From sequence record PV173775: 64,000 nucleotides of DNA, one strand, 5' to 3'. The number at the start of each line of letters is the position of its first letter. The first letter of the stretch is position 1. A model generated the notes under the pieces. The model was not told the DNA's origin. It saw only the letters and a list, made by a program, of their open reading frames with translations, and searched no databases. This DNA is from Escherichia phage GEP001. Positions 7,606 through 61,598 of the stretch are shown here, piece after piece. Position numbers and translations under genes: made by a program.

Positions 7606-9033
7606 GTGGTAGAAATTATTCTTTCTCATCTCATATTTGATCAAGCTTATTTTTCAAAAGTTTGGCCATATATGGATTCAGAATATTTTGAAAGTGGTCC
7701 AGCTAAAAATACATTCAAATTAATTAAATCTCATGTCAATGAGTACCATAGCGTTCCATCTATTAATGCGTTAAATGTTGCATTAGAAAATAGTTCATTT
7801 ACTGAAACAGAATATTCTGGTGTAAAAACACTTATTTCGAAACTAACCGATTCTCCAGAAGACCATAGCTGGTTAGTAAAAGAAACAGAAAAATACGTTC
7901 AGCAAAGGGCGATGTTTAATGCTACGTCTAAAATAATTGAAATTCAAACTAATGCTGAGCTTCCTCCGGAAAAACGCAATAAGAAAATGCCAGATGTAGG
8001 TGCTATTCCTGACATCATGCGCCAAGCATTATCAATTTCATTTGATAGTTACGTTGGTCATGATTGGATGGATGACTACGAAGCACGTTGGCTATCTTAT
8101 ATGAATAAAGCTCGTAAGGTTCCATTTAAACTCAAAATTCTAAATAAAATTACTAAAGGCGGAGCTGAAACTGGAACACTGAATGTTTTAATGGCTGGTG
8201 TTAACGTTGGTAAGTCATTAGGTCTGTGTTCATTGGCAGCAGATTATTTGCAGCTCGGACATAATGTTCTTTACATTTCCATGGAAATGGCTGAAGAAGT
8301 CTGTGCTAAACGTATTGATGCTAATATGCTTGATGTTTCTCTTGATGACATTGATGATGGGCATATTTCTTACGCTGAGTATAAAGGAAAAATGGAAAAA
8401 TGGCGTGAGAAATCTACTCTCGGTCGTTTAATCGTTAAACAGTATCCTACTGGTGGAGCAGACGCTAATACATTTCGATCGCTTTTAAACGAATTGAAGC
8501 TCAAGAAGAATTTTGTTCCAACAATCATTATTGTCGACTATCTAGGTATTTGTAAATCTTGCCGCATCAGAGTTTACTCAGAAAATAGTTACACAACTGT
8601 TAAAGCCATCGCAGAAGAATTGCGTGCTCTGGCTGTTGAAACCGAAACTGTTCTTTGGACTGCAGCACAGGTTGGTAAGCAAGCTTGGGATTCTTCTGAT
8701 GTTAACATGAGCGATATTGCAGAATCTGCCGGTCTTCCAGCAACAGCCGATTTTATGCTTGCGGTCATTGAAACTGAGGAGTTAGCAGCTGCTGAACAAC
8801 AACTCATTAAGCAAATCAAATCACGATATGGCGATAAGAATAAATGGAATAAGTTTTTGATGGGTGTTCAAAAAGGAAATCAGAAATGGGTAGAAATTGA
8901 ACAAGATTCTACTCCAACTGAAGTGAACGAAGTGGCAGGTTCACAGCAGATTCAAGCTGAGCAGAATCGCTATCAAAGAAACGAATCCGCTCGAGCTCAG
9001 TTAGATGCTTTGGCAAACGAATTAAAATTTTAG
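7606..9033 (+). CDS. 41: replicative DNA helicase gp41 (DnaB-like)
   Basis: 475 aa; GTG start; Walker A GVNVGKS; sequence recognised as T4 gp41. Confidence 0.95.
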   Translation: MVEIILSHLIFDQAYFSKVWPYMDSEYFESGPAKNTFKLIKSHVNEYHSVPSINALNVALENSSFTETEYSGVKTLISKLTDSPEDHSWLVKETEKYVQQRAMFNATSKIIEIQTNAELPPEKRNKKMPDVGAIPDIMRQALSISFDSYVGHDWMDDYEARWLSYMNKARKVPFKLKILNKITKGGAETGTLNVLMAGVNVGKSLGLCSLAADYLQLGHNVLYISMEMAEEVCAKRIDANMLDVSLDDIDDGHISYAEYKGKMEKWREKSTLGRLIVKQYPTGGADANTFRSLLNELKLKKNFVPTIIIVDYLGICKSCRIRVYSENSYTTVKAIAEELRALAVETETVLWTAAQVGKQAWDSSDVNMSDIAESAGLPATADFMLAVIETEELAAAEQQLIKQIKSRYGDKNKWNKFLMGVQKGNQKWVEIEQDSTPTEVNEVAGSQQIQAEQNRYQRNESARAQLDALANELKF

Positions 9034-9073
9034 TTTACAAGCCGACAAGACTATGGTATAGTAGTCTTGTCGG
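9033..9073 (+). promoter_or_regulatory. early promoter with 11-bp perfect inverted repeat (ccgacaagact / agtcttgtcgg) bracketing the -10
   Basis: GTTTAC 9033-9038, TATAGT 9057-9062, arms 9042-9052 and 9063-9073. Confidence 0.55.
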
Positions 9074-9091
9074 TTAAATGAGGAGATTTTT

Positions 9092-9274
9092 ATGGAATTG
9101 GTAAAGGTAGTTTTTATGGGGTGGTTTAAGAATGAAAGCATGTTTACTAAAGAAATCACAATGATGAAAGATGACGTTCAATGGGCTACTACTCAATATG
9201 CTGAAGTTAATAAAGCGCTAGTTAAAGCTTTCATTGATGACAAGAAAGTATGCGAAGTGGATTGCCGAGGATAA
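9092..9274 (+). CDS. dmd: Dmd antitoxin (inhibitor of RnlA/LsoA RNase toxins)
   Basis: 60 aa; MELVKVVFMGWFKNESMFTKEITMMKDDVQWATTQYAEVNKALVKAFIDDKKVCEVDCRG recognised as T4 Dmd (61.5). Confidence 0.8.
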   Translation: MELVKVVFMGWFKNESMFTKEITMMKDDVQWATTQYAEVNKALVKAFIDDKKVCEVDCRG

Positions 9275-9275
9275 T

Positions 9276-9533
9276 ATGCATATTGTTTTATTTAAACCTA
9301 CTCCGTATAACGTCAGGAAAAATACTCAATTCAAAGCACTTATCGCAGATACGTGGGAATTGGTATTAGATATTCCAGCAGAAGAAAGCCCTCCATTTGG
9401 TCGAGTGGAATTTATTAAGTTTGCTGTGCGCCCTACAAAGCGGCAGATTCGCCAATGCAAAAGATACTTTCGTAAAATCGTCAAGTTAGAGAAACAGTTT
9501 GTAACATGTGATTATACAGAAGTTTTAAAATAG
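9276..9533 (+). CDS. hypothetical protein (basic, 85 aa)
   Basis: ATG preceded by GAGGA RBS immediately after dmd stop; the track ORF start at 9234 overlaps dmd. Confidence 0.55.
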   Translation: MHIVLFKPTPYNVRKNTQFKALIADTWELVLDIPAEESPPFGRVEFIKFAVRPTKRQIRQCKRYFRKIVKLEKQFVTCDYTEVLK

Positions 9534-9535
9534 TA

Positions 9536-9578
9536 GTTTACAAGCTGATAGAGTTGTGTTATAGTAATTCTATCAGCT
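9536..9578 (+). promoter_or_regulatory. early promoter with 10-bp perfect inverted repeat (agctgataga / tctatcagct) bracketing the -10
   Basis: GTTTAC 9536-9541, TATAGT 9560-9565, arms 9543-9552 and 9569-9578. Confidence 0.55.
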
Positions 9579-9596
9579 AATCGCGGAGAAAAGAAA

Positions 9597-9851
9597 ATGA
9601 TGCTAGTTAATAGAGAATATCAGTTTAAATCAGAAGAAGATTTGGAAAAATTCGCGAGCGGTTGTGAACTGAATAGACGCACAGCTAAAGTCATAGGATT
9701 AAAACCCTTTACAGTTCTAGATTGTGAAGTTTCTAAATTCCGCAGAGGGTGTTCTATTAGCGGTCATGCTCTGGTTGATGGGAACACATTTTTCTTTGTT
9801 TTTAGCGTCAGAGAACTTTTATTGATTAACGAACTTGAGGAAATAAAATAG
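9597..9851 (+). CDS. hypothetical protein (84 aa)
   Basis: ORF with RBS-like gcggagaaaag upstream. Confidence 0.5.
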   Translation: MMLVNREYQFKSEEDLEKFASGCELNRRTAKVIGLKPFTVLDCEVSKFRRGCSISGHALVDGNTFFFVFSVRELLLINELEEIK

Positions 9852-9879
9852 TTTACTTTTGTTTTAAACATGTTATTAT
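9851..9879 (+). promoter_or_regulatory. early promoter (GTTTAC, 17 bp, TATTAT)
   Basis: gtttacttttgttttaaacatgttattat. Confidence 0.5.
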
Positions 9880-9903
9880 AGACCTATCAAAACAAACGAG
9901 TAA

Positions 9904-10095
9904 ATGGAGAATAAAATGTCTAAAGTATCAGGTTATCAATTATTAACACAAGAACAACGTTCAGAGATGGATTCTTTACAAGAACGGTGTCAGCATAGAA
10001 ATAACGCACTTGATTCATTTTTATTAGTTGAATATGAAAACTTGTGCTCTAGACTTGAAAAAGAATATGTTCATCAACATGGAGGAGAAGAATGA
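9904..10095 (+). CDS. hypothetical protein (63 aa; alternative start at 9916)
   Basis: Two in-frame ATGs; GGAG RBS favours the ATG at 9916. Confidence 0.5.
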   Translation: MENKMSKVSGYQLLTQEQRSEMDSLQERCQHRNNALDSFLLVEYENLCSRLEKEYVHQHGGEE

Positions 10096-10142
10096 AACTG
10101 AAATCACCAATTATTGTAATTTGTCTGTTTGCTTCTACTAGT

Positions 10143-10171
10143 GTTTACTTTTGTTGAAAATTGAGATACTA
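10143..10171 (+). promoter_or_regulatory. early promoter (GTTTAC, 17 bp, TACTAT)
   Basis: gtttacttttgttgaaaattgagatactat. Confidence 0.5.
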
Positions 10172-10198
10172 TAAACATAAACTACTGAGGAGATTATC

Positions 10199-10492
10199 AT
10201 GAAAAAATTTATCTTTGCTGCAATTTTTGCTTTATCTTCTTGCGCTGCTCAGCCTGCTATGGCGGGTTATGACAAAGATTTGTGTGAGTGGTCTATGACT
10301 GCAGATCAGACTGAGGTTGAAACTCAGATTGAAGCCGATATTATGAATATCGTTGAGCGTGATCGTCCTGAAATGAAAGCTGAAGTGCAAAAACAACTTA
10401 AGTCTGGTGGTGTAATGCAGTATAATTATGTTCTGTATTGCGATAAAAACTTTAATAATAAAAATATCGTAACCGAAATCACAGGCGAATAA
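10199..10492 (+). CDS. sp: Spackle periplasmic protein (superinfection exclusion, lysozyme inhibitor)
   Basis: 97 aa with N-terminal signal peptide MKKFIFAAIFALSSCAAQPAMA; recognised as T4 Sp. Confidence 0.75.
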   Translation: MKKFIFAAIFALSSCAAQPAMAGYDKDLCEWSMTADQTEVETQIEADIMNIVERDRPEMKAEVQKQLKSGGVMQYNYVLYCDKNFNNKNIVTEITGE

Positions 10493-10493
10493 T

Positions 10494-11126
10494 ATGATTT
10501 ATTATATGCACAAAAATCCACCGTTTAAATATGGTAAATTTCCTGATGCACAATGTTATAATATAACACCTAATGAAAATAACCGTGGATATCTTATTGG
10601 CACAATTTTTGTAATTGTTAAAGATAACGAAATCGTTGCCTGGGCAGATTTTAAAGGTACAACATATGATGTTAATCCGGTGCCTTTCACATATTACAAT
10701 TTAATGGATTTGGCATACGATTATAATTGGTTTAATCATGATACTTTGGCTCATATTGAAGGTGTAGGATTTGATATTTCATATTCGGAATACACTTTAA
10801 GCCCTATGAGTCGAGCCCATAAAGAACCTGAATATTTTTCATTTAGGAAACGTGTAAACTTTAAACGCAGCACAGAGTATATCGGTGGAATCTTTGTTAA
10901 AGATAATCGAATTATTCGTATTAATTATCCTTTGAGCGTTAGTCAAAAAGATATTGATGTTGATTTAGATTTCACTGAAAATAATATTAATAATATTGCT
11001 TCTGTGTATTTTGGTATCGATCACAAAATTGTAATATGTGGATATGAATTACCGTTTGAAGAACAGCCTAAAGTAAAAGTTTCTATTGACGATCAAATTT
11101 TTAATGCTTTTATGAATAAAGGTTAA
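10494..11126 (+). CDS. hypothetical protein (210 aa) with two internal VKDN-type repeats
   Basis: C-terminus SIDDQIFNAFMNKG is shared with the next ORF. Confidence 0.6.
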   Translation: MIYYMHKNPPFKYGKFPDAQCYNITPNENNRGYLIGTIFVIVKDNEIVAWADFKGTTYDVNPVPFTYYNLMDLAYDYNWFNHDTLAHIEGVGFDISYSEYTLSPMSRAHKEPEYFSFRKRVNFKRSTEYIGGIFVKDNRIIRINYPLSVSQKDIDVDLDFTENNINNIASVYFGIDHKIVICGYELPFEEQPKVKVSIDDQIFNAFMNKG

Positions 11127-12927: not shown

Positions 12928-12957
12928 GTTTACTTTCTCAGCTTGTTGTGGTATTAT
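12928..12957 (+). promoter_or_regulatory. early promoter (GTTTAC, 18 bp, TATTAT)
   Basis: gtttactttctcagcttgttgtggtattat, upstream of the 186-aa ORF. Confidence 0.55.
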
Positions 12958-12982
12958 AAAATAAACTGCTGAGGATAATATA

Positions 12983-14945: not shown

Positions 14946-14953
14946 TATAAATA
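14946..14953 (+). promoter_or_regulatory. late promoter TATAAATA for soc
   Basis: Exact TATAAATA about 30 bp upstream of soc ATG. Confidence 0.6.
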
Positions 14954-14983
14954 ATCATGTAATTTAAATAAAAGGAGAATTAC

Positions 14984-15229
14984 ATGGCTAGTACTCGCGG
15001 TTATGTTAATATCAAAACATTTGAGCAGAAATTAGATGGAAATAAGAAAATTGAAGGAAAGGAAATTTCAGTAGCTTTCCCTCTTTATTCTGACGTTCAC
15101 AAAATTTCTGGCGCTCATTACCAGACATTCCCTTCAGAAAAAGCAGCATATACTACTGTATATGAAGAAAATCAGCGTACTGAATGGATTGCTGCAAACG
15201 AAGATTTGTGGAAAGTAACTGGTGGTTAA
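14984..15229 (+). CDS. soc: Soc small outer capsid protein
   Basis: 81 aa; MASTRGYVNIKTFEQKLDGNKKIEGKEISVAFPLY... recognised as T4 Soc. Confidence 0.9.
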   Translation: MASTRGYVNIKTFEQKLDGNKKIEGKEISVAFPLYSDVHKISGAHYQTFPSEKAAYTTVYEENQRTEWIAANEDLWKVTGG

Positions 15230-15236
15230 TAATTCA

Positions 15237-15272: not shown

Positions 15273-15301
15273 TTTACTTTCCAAAATGAGTATGGTATAA
15301 T
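15273..15301 (+). promoter_or_regulatory. early promoter (GTTTAC, 17 bp, TATAAT)
   Basis: gtttactttccaaaatgagtatggtataat. Confidence 0.6.
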
Positions 15302-15327
15302 AAAATTATCTTATAGAGGAGAGCACT

Positions 15328-17379: not shown

Positions 17380-17409
17380 GTTTACTTTCCTTCCTAACGA
17401 TGATATGAT
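17380..17409 (+). promoter_or_regulatory. early promoter (GTTTAC, 18 bp, TATGAT)
   Basis: aaaaagttgtttactttccttcctaacgatgatatgat. Confidence 0.5.
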
Positions 17410-17435
17410 AGCTTCTGAAGTATATGGAGGCTATC

Positions 17436-18059
17436 ATGATTATTAATCTTGCAGATGTTGAACAGTTATCTATAAAAGCTGAAAGTGTTGATTTTCAATA
17501 TGATATGTATAAAAAGGTCTGTGAAAAATTTACTGATTTCGAGCAGTCAGTTCTTTGGCAATGTATGGAAGCCAAAAAGAATGAAGCTCTTCATCGGCAG
17601 TTGAATAAAATCATTAAAAAGCATTTAACTAAATCACCTTATCAGCTATATCGTGGTATATCAAAATCGACAAAAGAGCTCATTAAAGATTTACAAGTTG
17701 GAGAAGTGTTTTCAACGAATAGAGTAGATTCATTTACTACTAGTTTGCACACAGCATGTGGTTTTTCTTATGTTGAGTATTTCACTGAAATAATATTTCG
17801 CTTAAAAACTGATAAAGCTTTTAATTATTCTGACCATATCAGCGATATTATACTTTCTTCTCCTAATACTGAGTTTAAGTATACATATGAAGATACTGAT
17901 GGATTAGATTCAGAACGTACTGATAACTTAATGATGATTGTGCGTGAACAAGAATGGATGATTCCAATTGGAAAGTATAAAATAACTTCTATTTCAAAAG
18001 AAAAATTACACGATTCATTTGGAACATTTAAAGTGTATGATATTGAGGTAGTTGAATGA
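17436..18059 (+). CDS. modB: ADP-ribosyltransferase ModB
   Basis: 207 aa from ATG with GGAGG RBS; R-S-EXE motifs (YRGIS, FTTS, EQEWMIP). Confidence 0.75.
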   Translation: MIINLADVEQLSIKAESVDFQYDMYKKVCEKFTDFEQSVLWQCMEAKKNEALHRQLNKIIKKHLTKSPYQLYRGISKSTKELIKDLQVGEVFSTNRVDSFTTSLHTACGFSYVEYFTEIIFRLKTDKAFNYSDHISDIILSSPNTEFKYTYEDTDGLDSERTDNLMMIVREQEWMIPIGKYKITSISKEKLHDSFGTFKVYDIEVVE

Positions 18060-22340: not shown

Positions 22341-22370
22341 GTTTACTTCCTCGGTTAGTTGTGGTATTAT
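22341..22370 (+). promoter_or_regulatory. early promoter (GTTTAC, 18 bp, TATTAT)
   Basis: aaaaagttgtttacttcctcggttagttgtggtattat. Confidence 0.6.
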
Positions 22371-22397
22371 AACACCATAGCTACTGAGGATAATAAA

Positions 22398-22903: not shown

Positions 22904-23446
22904 ATGAAATTTAATTATAATCCTGAATACATACCAAATCCGGTAGCTAAACTGATTGATTTTGATGTTGTAAGCACTTATGTATGCCCTGTTAAACCAC
23001 TGGAAATTAAGGAATCTACTATGACTACCGCTATTGAAATCGGCAAAACCTACAAACTAGTTGAACCTGAAATTAAAACCAATGCCTTGATTTCCGGCTA
23101 TAAAACTTTGACTGGTGTTTTTGGCGAAGGCGAATTTACTGTTGAAGACTTTGAAAAAAGTAAATGGTTTACTAAATCTTATATTGTCCACGGTCGTCGT
23201 TTAGACAATAACAAAATAGAGAAAATCCTGGTTTATGAAGCAGAGTTCATCCTGTTCCAAGAAGTTGAAGAACAAGACCCTACAGACCTTCTAACTCGTG
23301 CGGTAGCTATCAAGACCCCATTTGTTTCGGTCTGTGGTTGGGTAACAGACCAGTGGATTGAAGATGGTGTTGAACTTCTGAACGTTGTTCATGCAGGTGA
23401 TTTTAGCGTAGTACCTCGTAGTACGGTGGTAGCTATTTTGAATTAA
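22904..23446 (+). CDS. hypothetical protein (180 aa) sharing a C-terminal domain with MotB
   Basis: C-terminal CGWVTDQWIEDGVELLNVVHAGDFSVVPRS resembles the next ORF. Confidence 0.6.
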   Translation: MKFNYNPEYIPNPVAKLIDFDVVSTYVCPVKPLEIKESTMTTAIEIGKTYKLVEPEIKTNALISGYKTLTGVFGEGEFTVEDFEKSKWFTKSYIVHGRRLDNNKIEKILVYEAEFILFQEVEEQDPTDLLTRAVAIKTPFVSVCGWVTDQWIEDGVELLNVVHAGDFSVVPRSTVVAILN

Positions 23447-23448
23447 TA

Positions 23449-23484
23449 GTTTACAAACTCTTGGGACCAGAGTATAATGGTCCC
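23449..23484 (+). promoter_or_regulatory. early promoter with 7-bp perfect inverted repeat (gggacca / tggtccc) around TATAAT
   Basis: GTTTAC 23449-23454, TATAAT 23473-23478. Confidence 0.6.
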
Positions 23485-23522
23485 GCGGAGTATAAAATCT
23501 TTTTAACAAGTGAGAGATAACT

Positions 23523-24020
23523 ATGATTATTAATATTGGTGAAATTGCTCGTGTATCTGATAAATCTCGTTCTAAAGCAGCAGGAAAATTGGTCGAAATT
23601 GTAAGCATTCAGCTTAAACACGGCGTTAAAGATGAAGATTCTGAAGTAAAAGTGCGTATCATTCCTAAAGATGGAAAGTCTAAACCTCAGTTTGGCTATG
23701 TTCGTGCGAAATTTCTTGAATCTGCGTTTTTGAAAGCTGTTCCCGCTAAAGGAATTGAGACGATTGATACTTCACATGTAGGTGTAGACTTTAAGTGGAA
23801 ACTCGGTCAGGCTATTAAGTTCATTGCTCCTTATGAATTCGAATTTACCGAAGATGAGGAAGGGGTTGTTCAAAAACATCGTACTCGTGCTATGTGTGCA
23901 TACATTACCGATCAATGGGTAGAAGATGGCGTTAAGTTGTACAACGCGGTATTTTTAGGAACATACAAAGTCATTCCTGAAAGTTGGATTAAACACTATA
24001 GCAAAGCTCGCTGTGCATAA
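23523..24020 (+). CDS. motB: MotB-like protein
   Basis: 165 aa; position between dexA and cef/goF as in T4; identity is positional. Confidence 0.5.
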   Translation: MIINIGEIARVSDKSRSKAAGKLVEIVSIQLKHGVKDEDSEVKVRIIPKDGKSKPQFGYVRAKFLESAFLKAVPAKGIETIDTSHVGVDFKWKLGQAIKFIAPYEFEFTEDEEGVVQKHRTRAMCAYITDQWVEDGVKLYNAVFLGTYKVIPESWIKHYSKARCA

Positions 24021-24050
24021 AGTTTAAAATTTTTTCATAAAACTATATAC

Positions 24051-24093
24051 ATCAGTAGTTGATTATGGTACTATATCAATATCAACTACTGAT
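24051..24093 (+). promoter_or_regulatory. promoter-like element with 13-bp perfect inverted repeat (atcagtagttgat / atcaactactgat) and TACTAT in the loop
   Basis: Read directly from sequence; no GTTTAC -35. Confidence 0.45.
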
Positions 24094-24105: not shown

Positions 24106-24387
24106 TTGGAGAATAAAATGGAAAACTTAATTATCATCGAACAATCTTTCAACGATTATGGTATGGCTTATGGTTATCGTGCGATAATGGAAGATTCTCG
24201 TGGATGTGTTATCGATATTGCTGAATGTAAAGATTTACTGCAGCTTTTGAAGATTGTTCGCAAAAATTGGGATTGTGAAAACATTAAAGTTCGTGTTGTA
24301 ACGGAAGAAGAAACTGTTTTTCATGATGTAAAATTTGCCAAAGGTGCTGCTACTCTTCTGAAACGCATCGCTCCACTGTTCAATTAA
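24106..24387 (+). CDS. hypothetical protein (93 aa)
   Basis: Track ORF. Confidence 0.5.
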   Translation: MENKMENLIIIEQSFNDYGMAYGYRAIMEDSRGCVIDIAECKDLLQLLKIVRKNWDCENIKVRVVTEEETVFHDVKFAKGAATLLKRIAPLFN

Positions 24388-25853: not shown

Positions 25854-25870
25854 AAGGCCTTCGGGCCTTT
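25853..25870 (+). terminator. stem-loop aaaggcc-ttcg-ggccttt
   Basis: 7-bp stem with UUCG loop; weak U tract. Confidence 0.5.
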
Positions 25871-27740: not shown

Positions 27741-27769
27741 TTTACTTTACCACAAGGATGTGGTATAAT
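27740..27769 (+). promoter_or_regulatory. early promoter (GTTTAC, 18 bp, TATAAT)
   Basis: gtttactttaccacaaggatgtggtataat. Confidence 0.65.
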
Positions 27770-32231: not shown

Positions 32232-32261
32232 GTTTACATACCACAAGGACCGTGGTACTAT
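32232..32261 (+). promoter_or_regulatory. early promoter (GTTTAC, 18 bp, TACTAT)
   Basis: ggtttacataccacaaggaccgtggtactat. Confidence 0.6.
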
Positions 32262-32288
32262 ACAACTATCAGCTACGGAGGAGTAAAA

Positions 32289-32736: not shown

Positions 32737-32767
32737 TGTTTACAAGACTGTTCCTCTGTGGTACTAT
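32737..32767 (+). promoter_or_regulatory. early promoter (GTTTAC, TACTAT), near-identical copy of the promoter at 3564
   Basis: aaaaagttgtttacaagactgttcctctgtggtactat. Confidence 0.6.
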
Positions 32768-32795
32768 TACCCTATCAACTACGGAGGAACAGAAA

Positions 32796-35816: not shown

Positions 35817-35822
35817 TTTTAG

Positions 35823-35840
35823 GGAGAGCCTCGGCTCTCC
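35823..35840 (+). other. RNA stem-loop ggagagc-ctcg-gctctcc (no U tract)
   Basis: 7-bp perfect stem read from sequence. Confidence 0.5.
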
Positions 35841-35869: not shown

Positions 35870-35901
35870 AAATACTGATACAGAATTACGGAGATTAGAA
35901 A

Positions 35902-50773: not shown

Positions 50774-51423
50774 TTAAACTCCGCATGCCTGCTGGTGGTG
50801 AAAGATATATTGATGGTAAATCAGTTTATAAATTATACTTAATGATAAAACAACATATGAATGGAAAGTATGATGTAATTAAGTATAATTGGTGCATGCG
50901 GGTGTCTGATGCCGCTTATCAAAAGCGAAGGGATAAGTATTTTTTCCAGAAGTTATCAGAAAAATATAAATTAAAGGAACTTGCTTTAATCTTTATAAGC
51001 AATCTTGTTGCTAACCAAGATGCTTGGATTGGTGACATCTCTGACGCTGATGCACTTGTGTTTTATCGTGAATATATCGGACGCTTAAAGCAAATTAAAT
51101 TTAAGTTTGAAGAAGATATTCGCAACATTTATTATTTTAGTAAAAAAGTTGAAGTTTCTGCTTTTAAAGAAATCTTTGAATATAATCCAAAAGTTCAATC
51201 AAGTTATATTTTTAAACTACTTCAATCGAATATAATTTCGTTTGAGACGTTTATCTTGCTTGATTCGTTTTTAAATATAATTGATAAACATGATGAACAG
51301 ACTGATAATTTAGTCTGGAATAATTATTCTATAAAGTTAAAGGCTTATAGAAAAATTTTAAATATTGATTCGCAGAAAGCTAAAAGTGTTTTCATTGAAA
51401 CTGTGAAATCCTGCAAGTATTAA
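50770..51423 (+). CDS. 59: gp59 helicase loader
   Basis: 217 aa, same as T4 gp59; MIKLRMPAGGERYIDGKSVYKLYLMIKQ... Confidence 0.9.
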   Translation: MIKLRMPAGGERYIDGKSVYKLYLMIKQHMNGKYDVIKYNWCMRVSDAAYQKRRDKYFFQKLSEKYKLKELALIFISNLVANQDAWIGDISDADALVFYREYIGRLKQIKFKFEEDIRNIYYFSKKVEVSAFKEIFEYNPKVQSSYIFKLLQSNIISFETFILLDSFLNIIDKHDEQTDNLVWNNYSIKLKAYRKILNIDSQKAKSVFIETVKSCKY

Positions 51424-53111: not shown

Positions 53112-53140
53112 TTTACAGTAGGGTAGTAGTGTGATACTAT
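53111..53140 (+). promoter_or_regulatory. early promoter (GTTTAC, 18 bp, TACTAT)
   Basis: gtttacagtagggtagtagtgtgatactat. Confidence 0.6.
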
Positions 53141-53165
53141 TACCCTATCAACTAAGGAGAATAAA

Positions 53166-59946: not shown

Positions 59947-61534
<1,588 letters not shown>

Positions 61535-61537
61535 GCT

Positions 61538-61567
61538 GTTTACAAGTCCCTCGTGTTGTGTTATAGT
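61538..61567 (+). promoter_or_regulatory. early promoter (GTTTAC, 18 bp, TATAGT)
   Basis: gtttacaagtccctcgtgttgtgttatagt. Confidence 0.55.
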
Positions 61568-61598
61568 AGACTTACTGACATAACATGAGGACTTTATG

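Follow-up and report, generated by a model that had tools for sequence, protein, structure and literature searches.

Inverted repeats at early promoters of the T4-like phage GEP001 are PeSL cassettes with hairpins predicted in read-through RNA

Why would a phage embed its early promoters in inverted repeats whose arms differ from one promoter to the next? The question is raised by four sites in a 64,000-nucleotide stretch of DNA from Escherichia phage GEP001 (record PV173775; hereafter the window), which is that of a Tequatrovirus (T4-like phage) and matches ECO07P2 at 99.5% identity. A first-pass annotation of the sequence had described perfect inverted repeats at 9042-9073, 9543-9578, 23463-23484 and 24051-24093, and each of the four is present exactly there. 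In this study, we examined their anatomy, folding and conservation, and we conclude that the repeats at all four sites are real and under selection. They are PeSL ("promoter-early stem-loop") cassettes of T4-like phages, an element class that is already known: its architecture is in print (Arbiol 2010, PMC2839356; Comeau 2014, PMC4122927), the T4/PST pair included, with attenuator and recombination roles. What is new here is small, namely the RNA-level selection of the stems, their confinement to read-through RNA, the missing U tract at the four sites and the occlusion of the Shine-Dalgarno (SD) sequence at about half of the hairpin-bearing early promoters. In the accessible portions of the PeSL papers (PMC2839356; PMC4122927) we found no analysis of covariation or strand polarity, nor of 3' arms that occlude the SD.

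The promoter elements described below lie on the + strand. At site 1, the -35 hexamer TTTACA (9034-9039) directly follows gene 41's TAG stop codon (9031-9033), and the -10 hexamer TATAGT (9057-9062), 17 bp from this exact TTTACA, lies in the loop. The 5' arm CCGACAAGACTA (9042-9053) falls within the promoter spacer, and the 3' arm TAGTCTTGTCGG (9062-9073) spans the putative start site and is followed by TTAAAT, with no U tract. The repeat is perfect, as first described, with arms of 12 nt, one base longer than had been given. Downstream come the SD GAGGAG (9080-9085) and the ATG of dmd (9092), and the promoter itself is documented in T4 as the early promoter of dmd-tifA (PMC9391042). The genes dmd and tifA sit between sites 1 and 2. 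Site 2 lies 3' of the tifA (61.4) stop codon (9531-9533) and has a -35 hexamer TTTACA (9537-9542), again exact and 17 bp from a TATAGT -10 hexamer (9560-9565) in the loop. Its 5' arm (9543-9556) occupies the spacer and consists of the perfect AGCTGATAGA (9543-9552) and four more pairs including G.U, so that the repeat is perfect over 10 nt and reaches 14 pairs once G.U is counted; the 3' arm (9565-9578) ends in TCTATCAGCT, its perfect part (9569-9578), and is followed by AATCGC, the SD GGAG (9585-9588) and an ATG at 9597.

The other two sites lie in the motB-cef region. Site 3 begins 3' of the stop codon of a motB.1-like gene with TTTACA (23450-23455), from which the -10 hexamer TATAAT (23473-23478), in the loop, is once more separated by 17 bp. 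The 5' side of the hairpin (23457-23469) lies in the spacer and contains the core GGGACCA (23463-23469); the 3' side (23478-23491) contains the core TGGTCCC (23478-23484) and an outer helix to GGAG (23487-23490), and the motB ATG follows at 23523. At site 4, a -35-like hexamer TATACA (24046-24051) is followed by the 5' arm ATCAGTAGTTGAT (24051-24063), the -10 hexamer TACTAT in the loop (24069-24074) and the pairing 3' arm ATCAACTACTGAT (24081-24093), after which come ACAGAA, the SD GGAG (24108-24111) and the cef ATG (24118). This promoter (TATACA-N17-TACTAT) is weaker than the textbook T4 early promoters of sites 1-3 (tagTTTACA-N17-TATAGT/TATAAT); JS10 has the same layout, and TACTAT is the -10 hexamer of four further early promoters in the window. 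The proposal that the -10 hexamer lies in the loop thus holds at all four sites, with the refinement that at sites 1 and 3 its last base falls in the 3' arm. The 20 nt upstream of the four -35 hexamers are 75-90% A+T, against 65% in the window, and SD and ATG stand 6-38 nt past the stems. T4 carries the same hairpins at the 41>dmd, motB.1>motB and motB>cef junctions. The T4 GenBank record annotates neither promoters nor terminators in this region, and an Rfam scan of the whole window returned zero matches.

Could repeats of this kind arise by chance? Each site was folded from the -35 hexamer to the start codon and compared with 400 dinucleotide shuffles, none of which folded as well; z was -7.2, -4.4, -5.0 and -5.1 for sites 1-4, with 15, 14, 13 and 13+5 pairs. 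Among random 45-mers of the same strand, 0.13% reach -18 kcal/mol. The hairpins are retained in read-through contexts of 180-190 nt, in MFE and centroid structures alike. Counting promoters against shuffled controls, as the first-pass annotation had suggested, gave z < -2 at 11 of the 18 early promoters in the window (mean z -2.8, Stouffer Z -11.9), and the mean was still -2.6 after the -35, -10 and SD were fixed. Decoy promoter matches (n = 61) had a mean z of -0.29 (Mann-Whitney P = 2e-4 versus the early promoters), and duplexes between spacer and leader averaged -12.45 kcal/mol for cognate against -7.30 kcal/mol for non-cognate pairs (permutation P < 5e-5). The feature is not obligatory, since 7 of the 18 early promoters have no significant hairpin.

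T4 is known to undergo quasi-palindrome template-switch mutagenesis, which can make imperfect repeats perfect, and the repeats might be chance or mutational by-products, arising for example when template switching corrects quasi-palindromes in the AT-rich DNA between genes. Such an origin leaves unexplained why the excess is confined to genuine early promoters and missing at decoys, why the placement is fixed, with the 5' arm in the spacer and the 3' arm past the -10 hexamer, why spacer and leader are so strongly specific for their cognate partner, and why the hairpin is maintained over genera with differing sequences. Fold statistics, decoys and the cognate test already largely refute it, and we find it hardly credible.

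The comparison with relatives clarifies what is conserved. The arms had been called covarying; between the four sites, which are not homologous, this is not covariation in the strict sense, and the term becomes appropriate once a junction is set against its orthologues in other genera. Site 3 was aligned across Tequatro-, Gapriver- and Dhakavirus. Pairing holds in 94% of the cells, and both sides have changed in 5 of the 9 pairs; the covariation score is 0.58, whereas slid controls do not exceed 0.25. The basis for this covariation is just 3-4 independent lineages. The junction upstream of cef (site 4) carries four unrelated stems across four genera, and VR20 has kept a hairpin there though its loop has no -10 hexamer left. 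An IMG/VR search with Dmd yielded just 5 loci; being near-identical, they help little in judging covariation. The both-sided changes at site 3, the unrelated stems at the cef junction and the cognate specificity of spacer and leader bear out the original suggestion that the target of selection is the pairing and not a sequence bound by one protein. We rejected a single protein recognizing a palindromic operator, since the arms show no relationship either among sites or among genera.

Is the selected structure formed in DNA or in RNA? Both a DNA cruciform and a hairpin in read-through RNA had been envisaged, and our data disfavour the former. Haplotypes of site 1 contain 0, 1 or 2 G.U pairs, variants in T4, RB5-type phages, RB27 and JS10 contain G.T pairs, and Watson-Crick pairing on both strands, which a cruciform demands, is not kept in the relatives. 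The sense strand is more stable than the antisense strand in 24 of 29 hairpins, by a mean of -3.9 kcal/mol, a bias that is in part compositional (baseline -1.0 to -1.9 kcal/mol) and exceeds that baseline; G.U accounts for 53 of 411 pairs in sense folds and 9 of 357 in antisense folds, counts that also carry a compositional baseline bias. These patterns make an RNA structure formed by the mRNA strand the more likely of the two.

The repeat might instead work as promoter DNA, as a cruciform or non-template-strand hairpin that lays open the -10 hexamer or modulates formation of the open complex, or as a target for early-promoter shut-off, the mechanism of which is unresolved (PMC3014915). All four repeats are indeed perfectly Watson-Crick in this phage, with each DNA strand folding at -6.5 to -12.5 kcal/mol and the -10 hexamer in the loop. 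However, relatives keep the stem via G.T, which is fine in RNA and a mismatch on both DNA strands, and the repeat is missing at 7 of the 18 early promoters. Furthermore, loops of 8-17 nt with stems of 7-13 bp, as found here, are poor cruciform formers, and the related hairpins described below have arms 25-36 nt apart that end in the SD, an arrangement sensible in RNA only. We therefore regard a role as promoter DNA as very improbable.

If the structure is formed in RNA, the question becomes which RNA. Transcription in E. coli generally starts about 7 nt 3' of the -10 hexamer, and the putative start sites were placed by this rule. With the starts so positioned, the 5' partner of every pair lies upstream of the start site, and because of this geometry both arms would occur only in read-through RNA. 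Leaders have a mean folding energy of -14.1 kcal/mol in read-through transcripts and -0.8 kcal/mol in promoter-initiated ones; at the four sites the values are -18 to -24 and 0 to -4.7 kcal/mol. Geometry and leader folding energies thus agree with the earlier prediction that a transcript started at the promoter holds the distal arm only and that the full hairpin would form only in read-through RNA.

The same arrangement recurs elsewhere in the window. A fifth element, tagTTTACAgTAGGGTA...TACTATTACCCTA, belongs to the class of the four sites and lies at 53112-53148 (z -3.8). In a sister class of early promoters, the 3' arm takes in the SD of the downstream gene. At 12929-12975, the spacer TTCTCAGC pairs with GCTGAGGA, which is the SD itself, and at 17381-17438 a hairpin (17404-17416/17426-17438) covers SD and ATG, its 5' side overlapping the -10 hexamer. 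At the dexA to motB.2 junction (22342-22390) the spacer TCCTCGGTTAGTTGTGGT pairs with the SD-bearing ACCATAGCTACTGAGGA, at 32739-32792 the spacer CTGTTCCTC(TGTGG) with the SD-bearing (CTACG)GAGGAACAG, and at 61539-61594 the spacer AAGTCCcTC... with the SD-bearing ...GAGGACTT. The SD serves as 3' arm in about half of the approximately 11 hairpin-bearing early promoters of the window. The four original sites differ in this respect, with no SD nucleotide paired in the folds at 9034, 9537, 23450 or 24046.

What could such hairpins do to a read-through transcript? The four hairpins are not canonical terminators. An intrinsic terminator has a U tract (at least 5 T in 8) right after a G+C-rich stem with a loop of 3-8 nt. 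The tails here (TTAAAT, AATCGC, GCGGAG and ACAGAA for sites 1-4) contain no such tract, and a consensus terminator scan called none of the four; E. coli RNA polymerase would therefore not be expected to terminate efficiently at them by the intrinsic route. In the annotation of phage SA20RB, WebGeSTer labelled both hairpins as terminators, and TransTermHP did so for site 1 too. The U-tract terminators of the window (15236, 25858, 31365, 678) stand upstream of the -35 hexamer. Behind those at 15236 and 25858 we saw no promoter with a comparable hairpin; the early promoter at 15273 has a weak one only (z -2.1), and the promoter after 25858 lies outside the folded 18. Literature searches on T4 Term-seq, 3'-end mapping and 41-dmd junction transcripts gave nothing usable. 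Processing by RNase III, which had been put forward for the read-through RNA, is disfavoured by stems of only 7-15 bp, and we rejected it as these are too short against the near-continuous duplex of about 20 bp or more of RNase III sites. Translational coupling, in which a terminating ribosome melts the stem, was also rejected at the four sites, where the stem lies at least 8 nt past the stop codon and contains no SD.

Another possibility is that the hairpin is purely a 3'-end stabilizer: after cleavage downstream, by RegB at the SD GGAG or by RNase E, exonucleases would halt there and the upstream cistron (gene 41, for example) would outlive the early cistron, with transcription and downstream translation unaffected. 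The hairpins stand 8-20 nt past the upstream stop codon without a U tract, GGAG follows 6-14 nt downstream of all four, and RegB cuts GGAG in early SDs (review PMC3014915); the VR20 hairpin upstream of cef, which survives without a -10 hexamer in its loop, also fits. Stabilization alone does not account for the consistent place of the 5' arm upstream of the start, which leaves the promoter's own transcripts unstructured, nor for the SD being the 3' arm in half of the hairpins. As the whole explanation it is, in our judgment, unlikely. Stabilization is also compatible with the attenuation and SD occlusion discussed below, the two being non-exclusive.

The sites also coincide with places where genomes have been rearranged. 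Homology with most relatives ends at 9541, within the -35 hexamer of site 2, and homology with JS10 stops at 23454, within that of site 3. Between tifA and sp, four cassette arrangements are found, with junctions in common -35 and SD blocks, and the stem TAGGGTA/TACCCTA is common to the element at 53112 and to the Dhakavirus motB>cef junction. Taken together with the mini-circles reported in the PeSL literature and the amplification of T4 dmd-tifA by recombination, these breakpoints, arrangements and the shared stem could mean that the repeats are mainly DNA recombination substrates, through a hairpin-recognizing protein or through cassette homology, and that RNA structure is incidental. The crossovers, however, fall in the conserved -35 and SD blocks and not in the site-specific arms, which, being unique to each site, offer no homology, and the compensatory changes and tolerance of G.U indicate RNA pairing. 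Recombination as the main purpose of the repeats thus seems quite improbable to us.

Based on these results, we consider a PeSL-type, read-through-specific hairpin, attenuator-like at the four sites and SD-occluding in the sister class, to be the best explanation, with somewhat more in its favour than against it. Each site would be a composite, in which the 55-95 bp separating two small early genes accommodate a strong sigma-70 early promoter. The promoter's sequence-free 17-bp spacer, the 5' arm, would have been shaped for pairing with the 3' arm, which consists of the discriminator and the start-site region. A polymerase initiating at the promoter would start in or just past the 3' arm and would therefore make an mRNA with an open leader. 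A polymerase coming from the upstream gene would transcribe both arms, and a hairpin of -18 to -24 kcal/mol would form a few bases past the stop codon; as both arms would be found only in upstream-derived RNA, the hairpin would be a read-through-specific RNA element. It may mark the 3' boundary of the upstream cistron and insulate the downstream early gene from upstream transcription. At the four sites it would most likely act as an attenuator that resembles a terminator but has no U tract, and it might block 3' exonucleases too; in the sister class it would occlude the Shine-Dalgarno sequence. The promoter and SD blocks that recur between cassettes could double as crossover points for cassette shuffling. 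Our data show the anatomy, the excess over chance, the covariation, the bias to the sense strand and the breakpoints; we infer each of these functional consequences, like the position of the start sites.

PeSL elements of this kind organize the accessory-gene regions of T4-like phages as plug-in cassettes, in which every gene brings a promoter and a boundary signal. This helps to explain why host-range and anti-defence genes, dmd and tifA among them, are gained and lost so fast. A more speculative proposal, about which we are rather doubtful, is that the stems are a genome-wide filter on transcript origin and not terminators, early cistrons being expressed only from RNA of their own promoter. 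Silencing would then result from SD occlusion in the sister class, and at sites like the four from a hairpin without a U tract that blocks exonucleases or pauses the read-through polymerase over the promoter. If true, this would help to explain why T4 early-protein synthesis collapses after shut-off, a process described as incompletely understood (review PMC3014915), despite continuing middle-mode read-through. If mapped 5' and 3' ends bore out the read-through-specific stems, the missing U tract and the SD occlusion described above, the published "terminator" label would need revision, and the elements would provide a clean model for transcript-origin-dependent expression.

How, then, do these elements compare with known systems? 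PeSLs combine an early promoter with a stem-loop, mostly between -35 and -10 or overlapping -10; they are AT-rich upstream and carry SD and ATG at the 3' end, and for T4/PST the consensus is TTTACW-N17-TAYWAT with variable stems (PMC2839356; PMC4122927). Sites 1-4 share the sigma-70-type early promoter with a stable stem-loop on or by it (-18 to -24 kcal/mol), the AT-rich upstream region, the SD and ATG on the 3' side and the intergenic position right behind a stop codon, and they likewise lie between small accessory genes, in hyperplastic regions and at indel or replacement breakpoints. One PeSL stem-loop matched rrnB T1 in lowering lacZ expression (PMC2839356; PMC4122927), in the sole functional assay, which used one G/C-rich RB49 stem-loop in a plasmid reporter and did not separate termination from RNA processing or decay. 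Unlike the assayed RB49/phi1 stems, which pair a G-run with a C-run, the stems here are unique to each site; the figure legend for PST places stems just upstream of the promoter, whereas the four stems here enclose the -10 hexamer; and, since they have no U tract, the label "terminator" is not established for them. The T4 genes e, soc, 49 and I-TevI have hairpins with a late promoter inside (review PMC3014915, section 29), and the soc example is located in this window at 14946-14986. As in the e/soc type, at the four sites the promoter lies in or beside the 5' arm, so that upstream-initiated RNA is predicted to fold and promoter-initiated RNA is not, and the sister-class early promoters (12929, 17381, 22342, 32739, 61539) would sequester the SD likewise. 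The difference is that the e/soc type has late promoters (TATAAATA) and a 3' arm with SD or AUG, whereas at the four sites the SD is unpaired, 6-27 nt past the hairpin. Intrinsic terminators share the compact stable hairpin right behind a stop codon, but have loops of 3-8 nt, against 6-17 nt here, and the U tract that is missing here. The T7 early RNase III sites are also hairpins between early cistrons, and the upstream mRNA keeps a 3' stem that protects it; those sites have internal loops in a duplex of about 20 bp or more and are cut by RNase III, while the present stems are of 7-15 bp and overlap promoters. Finally, lambdoid morons are likewise single accessory genes with their own promoter and stop signal, gained and lost as units; in morons a separate promoter and terminator flank the gene, whereas here one element would take both parts and bring recombination homology as well.

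The early genes of the window (G+C content 35%) lie on the + strand, and positions 8500-10500 share 99.5% identity with Escherichia phage ECO07P2 and about 96% with T4 and several hundred further Tequatrovirus genomes. With genes ordered by means of ORF lists together with the ime09 and T4 annotations, site 1 (9042-9073) directly follows gene 41 (7606-9033) and precedes dmd (9092-9274) and 61.4/tifA, which ends at 9533; site 2 (9543-9578) comes next, ahead of a goF-like gene (9597-9851), a small ORF and sp; site 3 (23463-23484) separates a motB.1-like gene (22904-23446) from motB (23523-24020), and site 4 (24051-24093) separates motB from cef (ATG at 24118). The four inverted repeats described in the first-pass annotation were all found in the window sequence at the positions given there, each with a -10 hexamer inside its loop. 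At sites 1-3 (promoters 9034, 9537 and 23450, named by the start of the -35 hexamer), an exact TTTACA abuts the upstream gene's stop codon (tagTTTACA) and is followed, at 17-bp spacing, by TATAGT or TATAAT, which, judged by sequence, is the T4 early-promoter pattern; the site 1 promoter has been assigned to the dmd-tifA operon (PMC9391042, which cites Liebig and Ruger 1989). The site 4 promoter (24046) is TATACA-N17-TACTAT, identical to that at the orthologous junction of JS10, and TACTAT is the -10 hexamer in four further early promoters of the window.

Several approaches demonstrate that these repeats do not arise simply by chance. We folded each of the 18 early promoters in + strand intergenic gaps of the window from the -35 hexamer to the start codon, and scored the folds against 400 dinucleotide shuffles. 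An excess was found in this window-wide count, which the first-pass annotation had proposed: z was below -2 in 11 of the 18 (mean z -2.8; Stouffer Z -11.9), with values of -7.2, -4.4, -5.0 and -5.1 at sites 1, 2, 3 and 4, and a significant hairpin was absent in seven. Holding the -35, -10 and Shine-Dalgarno (SD) sequences fixed in the shuffles changed the mean little (-2.6). By comparison, 61 decoy matches to the promoter pattern elsewhere in the window had a mean z of -0.29 and a best dG of -11.5 kcal/mol (Mann-Whitney P = 2e-4), and only 0.13% of random 45-mers reached -18 kcal/mol. When the spacer of each promoter was paired with the leader of every promoter, cognate combinations averaged -12.45 kcal/mol vs -7.30 for non-cognate ones (permutation P < 5e-5), and in eight promoters the cognate pairing was better than all 34 non-cognate combinations. 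Based on the shuffles, the decoys and the cognate matching, we regard the repeats as real, as specific to genuine early promoters and as matched one by one.

All hairpin-bearing promoters share one anatomy. The 5' arm begins 1-8 nt past the -35 hexamer, within the spacer, which is the sole sequence-free part of these compact gaps, and the 3' arm comes after the -10 hexamer. Transcription generally starts about 7 nt past the -10 hexamer, which would place the 5' partner of every pair upstream of the start site. The mean leader dG is -14.1 kcal/mol for read-through RNA, arriving from the upstream gene, vs -0.8 for promoter-initiated RNA, and the hairpins still form with 100 nt of upstream coding sequence added to the fold; arm geometry and energies thus support the earlier proposal that both arms pair only in read-through RNA. 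Two classes can be recognized. In the SD-free class (9034, 9537, 23450, 24046 and 53112), the 3' arm extends to about +5. In the SD class, the 3' arm contains the SD, as seen by folding at 12929-12975, 17381-17438, 22342-22390, 32739-32792 and 61539-61594, and weakly at 15273-15325, all on the + strand. There, an anti-Shine-Dalgarno sequence (TCCTC...) makes up the spacer right after the -35 hexamer and base-pairs with the downstream gene's SD; at 17381, the start codon is paired as well. On sequence grounds, translation in this class would be blocked on read-through RNA, and promoter-initiated RNA would be open. The same arrangement occurs in RB69, VR5, JS10 and Shf125875, at orthologous and non-homologous junctions and with differing stem extensions.

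T4 carries the same hairpins at 41>dmd, motB.1>motB and motB>cef, and the informative comparisons are those with other genera. Upstream of motB, the arms are GGGACCA/TGGTCCC in Tequatrovirus (with a G.U variant in RB27), GGGGTCA/TGACCCC in the Gaprivervirus VR20, which amounts to two double compensatory changes, and GAGAGCCAT/ATGGCTCTC in Dhakaviruses. In this alignment, 94% of cells are paired and both sides have changed in 5/9 pairs; the covariation score of 0.58, drawn from only three to four independent lineages, was reached by 0/500 shuffles, and slid controls stayed at or below 0.25. Upstream of cef, we found four unrelated stems (ATCAGTAGTTGAT, GGTAGGGTA, GATAGGG and GGTCTAT). In VR20, the motB>cef stem GATAGGGT/GCCCTATC (locus L018, 3090-3125) is kept 3 nt before the SD around a loop (aatttt) without a -10 hexamer, and the stem is thus retained without the promoter. 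At dexA>motB.2, an SD-containing hairpin is kept in Tequatrovirus, Dhakavirus and Mosigvirus with differing extensions, and RB27 has a double change from G-C to A-U. In RB69, the non-homologous promoters between 41 and sp fall into both hairpin classes. The pairing of orthologous junctions with changed arms supports selection for structure, as had been suspected from the unrelated arms.

Right after the site 3 hairpin, 23487-23499 reads GGAGTATAAAATC, which resembles a standard T4 SD and start (GGAGAATAAAATG) whose ATG was lost; the true motB SD and ATG lie 25-35 nt beyond, and T4, VR20 and the Dhakaviruses all retain GGAG here. It may be left over from an earlier cassette junction or represent a RegB site.

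The structure could in principle form in DNA, as a cruciform at the promoter, since the repeats at sites 1-4 are perfect and could fold on both strands; relatives discriminate. At site 1, the haplotype CCGAC../..GTCGG, without G.U pairs, occurs in this window only, T4 has CTGAC../..GTCGG (one G.U) and eight other loci have CTGAC../..GTTGG (two). Over 29 hairpins, G.U pairs make up 53/411 in sense folds and 9/357 in antisense folds, and sense RNA is the stabler in 24 (mean difference -3.9 kcal/mol); as -1.0 to -1.9 kcal/mol and 63-66% are expected from composition alone, this excess is only moderate, and the hairpins are non-independent samples. Furthermore, the arms of the SD class, separated by 25-36 nt, end in the ribosome-binding site, a geometry that only makes sense in RNA. 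Together, the G.U haplotypes, sense bias and SD-class geometry favour folding of the mRNA-sense transcript over a cruciform. RNase III processing of this RNA, also raised in the first-pass annotation, is disfavoured by stems of 7-15 bp.

The hairpins of sites 1-4 are not followed by a U tract, and a consensus terminator scan called 0/4 of them; the same scan called a terminator with a U tract at 15236. Further U-tract hairpins were found at 25858, 31365 and 678 in a gap listing of the window. All four sit upstream of a promoter's -35 hexamer, and the promoters behind them have an embedded hairpin that is weak at most (15273, z -2.1), a distribution that suggests complementary roles for the two kinds of hairpin. 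In the SA20RB annotation, the site 1 and site 2 hairpins are given as rho-independent terminators (WebGeSTer; site 1 also TransTermHP). An Rfam scan of the whole window gave no match. We propose that the stem at sites 1-4 would be an RNA element present solely in read-through transcripts, shielding the downstream early gene from upstream transcription; this insulation could operate through attenuation without a U tract, a block to 3' exonucleases or polymerase pausing. The main rival, in which the stem is a barrier to 3' exonucleases, is compatible with insulation, and a literature search for T4 3'-end mapping found none.

Other repeats were noted. At 35822-35840, a hairpin without U tract (GGAGAGC-ctcg-GCTCTCC) occupies the -35 position before tgtggTACTAT; the downstream block ATCAAATACTGATACAGAA is homologous to the 3'-arm region of site 4, and the complementary spacer is absent. 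Small CCAC(A)...(T)GTGG stems at 27748-27765, 32241-32255 and 60370-60384, not significant against shuffles, are located between the -35 hexamer (or the MotA box aTGCTTcc, 60358) and the -10 hexamer and employ the conserved tgtgg that precedes the latter. A 13-nt perfect inverted repeat with a 34-nt loop at 50831-50890 (AATTATACTTAAT/ATTAAGTATAATT), apparently in coding sequence, may be chance in AT-rich DNA.

It is close to certain that sites 1-4 are promoter-early stem-loops (PeSLs), a class already known and published. PeSLs were described in RB49 and phi1 as combining a strong sigma-70 promoter, which has an AT-rich region upstream, with an SD and ATG and with a stem-loop that mostly overlaps -10 or lies between -35 and -10; one such stem-loop cut lacZ expression as strongly as rrnB T1, and inter-PeSL recombination led to deletion, insertion and circularisation of gene cassettes (Arbiol et al. 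2010, PMC2839356). Later work added the PST/T4 pair, with variable stems and the consensus TTTACW-N17-TAYWAT, as well as vibriophages (Comeau et al. 2014, PMC4122927). In our data, homology to T4 and most relatives stops at 9541, within the site 2 -35 hexamer, and homology to JS10 stops at 23454, within that of site 3. The tifA-sp interval (9534-10198) has four cassette arrangements among close relatives: two cassettes in the window and ime09, one in RB5 (junction in the shared -35 block GTTTACTTTTGTT), the other one in SA20RB (junction in the shared SD block GGAGAA.AAAATG) and none in T4 and HY01. A fifth promoter has its -10 hexamer in a hairpin, tagTTTACAgTAGGGTA..TACTATTACCCTA (53112-53148, + strand); its stem TAGGGTA/TACCCTA is that of the Dhakavirus motB>cef junction (JS10, L014, 2005-2045; VR5, L013, 2010-2050), so this cassette is common to unrelated loci and genera. 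Its downstream block TACTATTACCCTATCAACTA is also present at 32739, where the spacer pairs with the SD instead. A cTATCAAc block about 5-12 nt past the -10 hexamer is conserved in many early promoters of several genera (9880-9890, 24075-24085, 32265-32275, 32770-32780, 35870-35880 and 53143-53152, and RB69, VR5, JS10 and Shf125875 loci), so homology between the cassettes extends past the promoter hexamers.

Of remaining interest are how the stems act and the sister class of early promoters whose hairpin occludes the SD. For the late promoters of T4 e, soc, 49 and I-TevI, it is textbook knowledge that a promoter can lie inside a hairpin that forms only in upstream-initiated RNA (PMC3014915). 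The window holds the textbook example itself at 14946-14986, where the soc late promoter TATAAATA (14946-14953) immediately precedes hairpin arms CATGTAATT/AATTACATG (14956-14964/14978-14986); these arms enclose the SD and also contain the ATG of soc (14984-14986).
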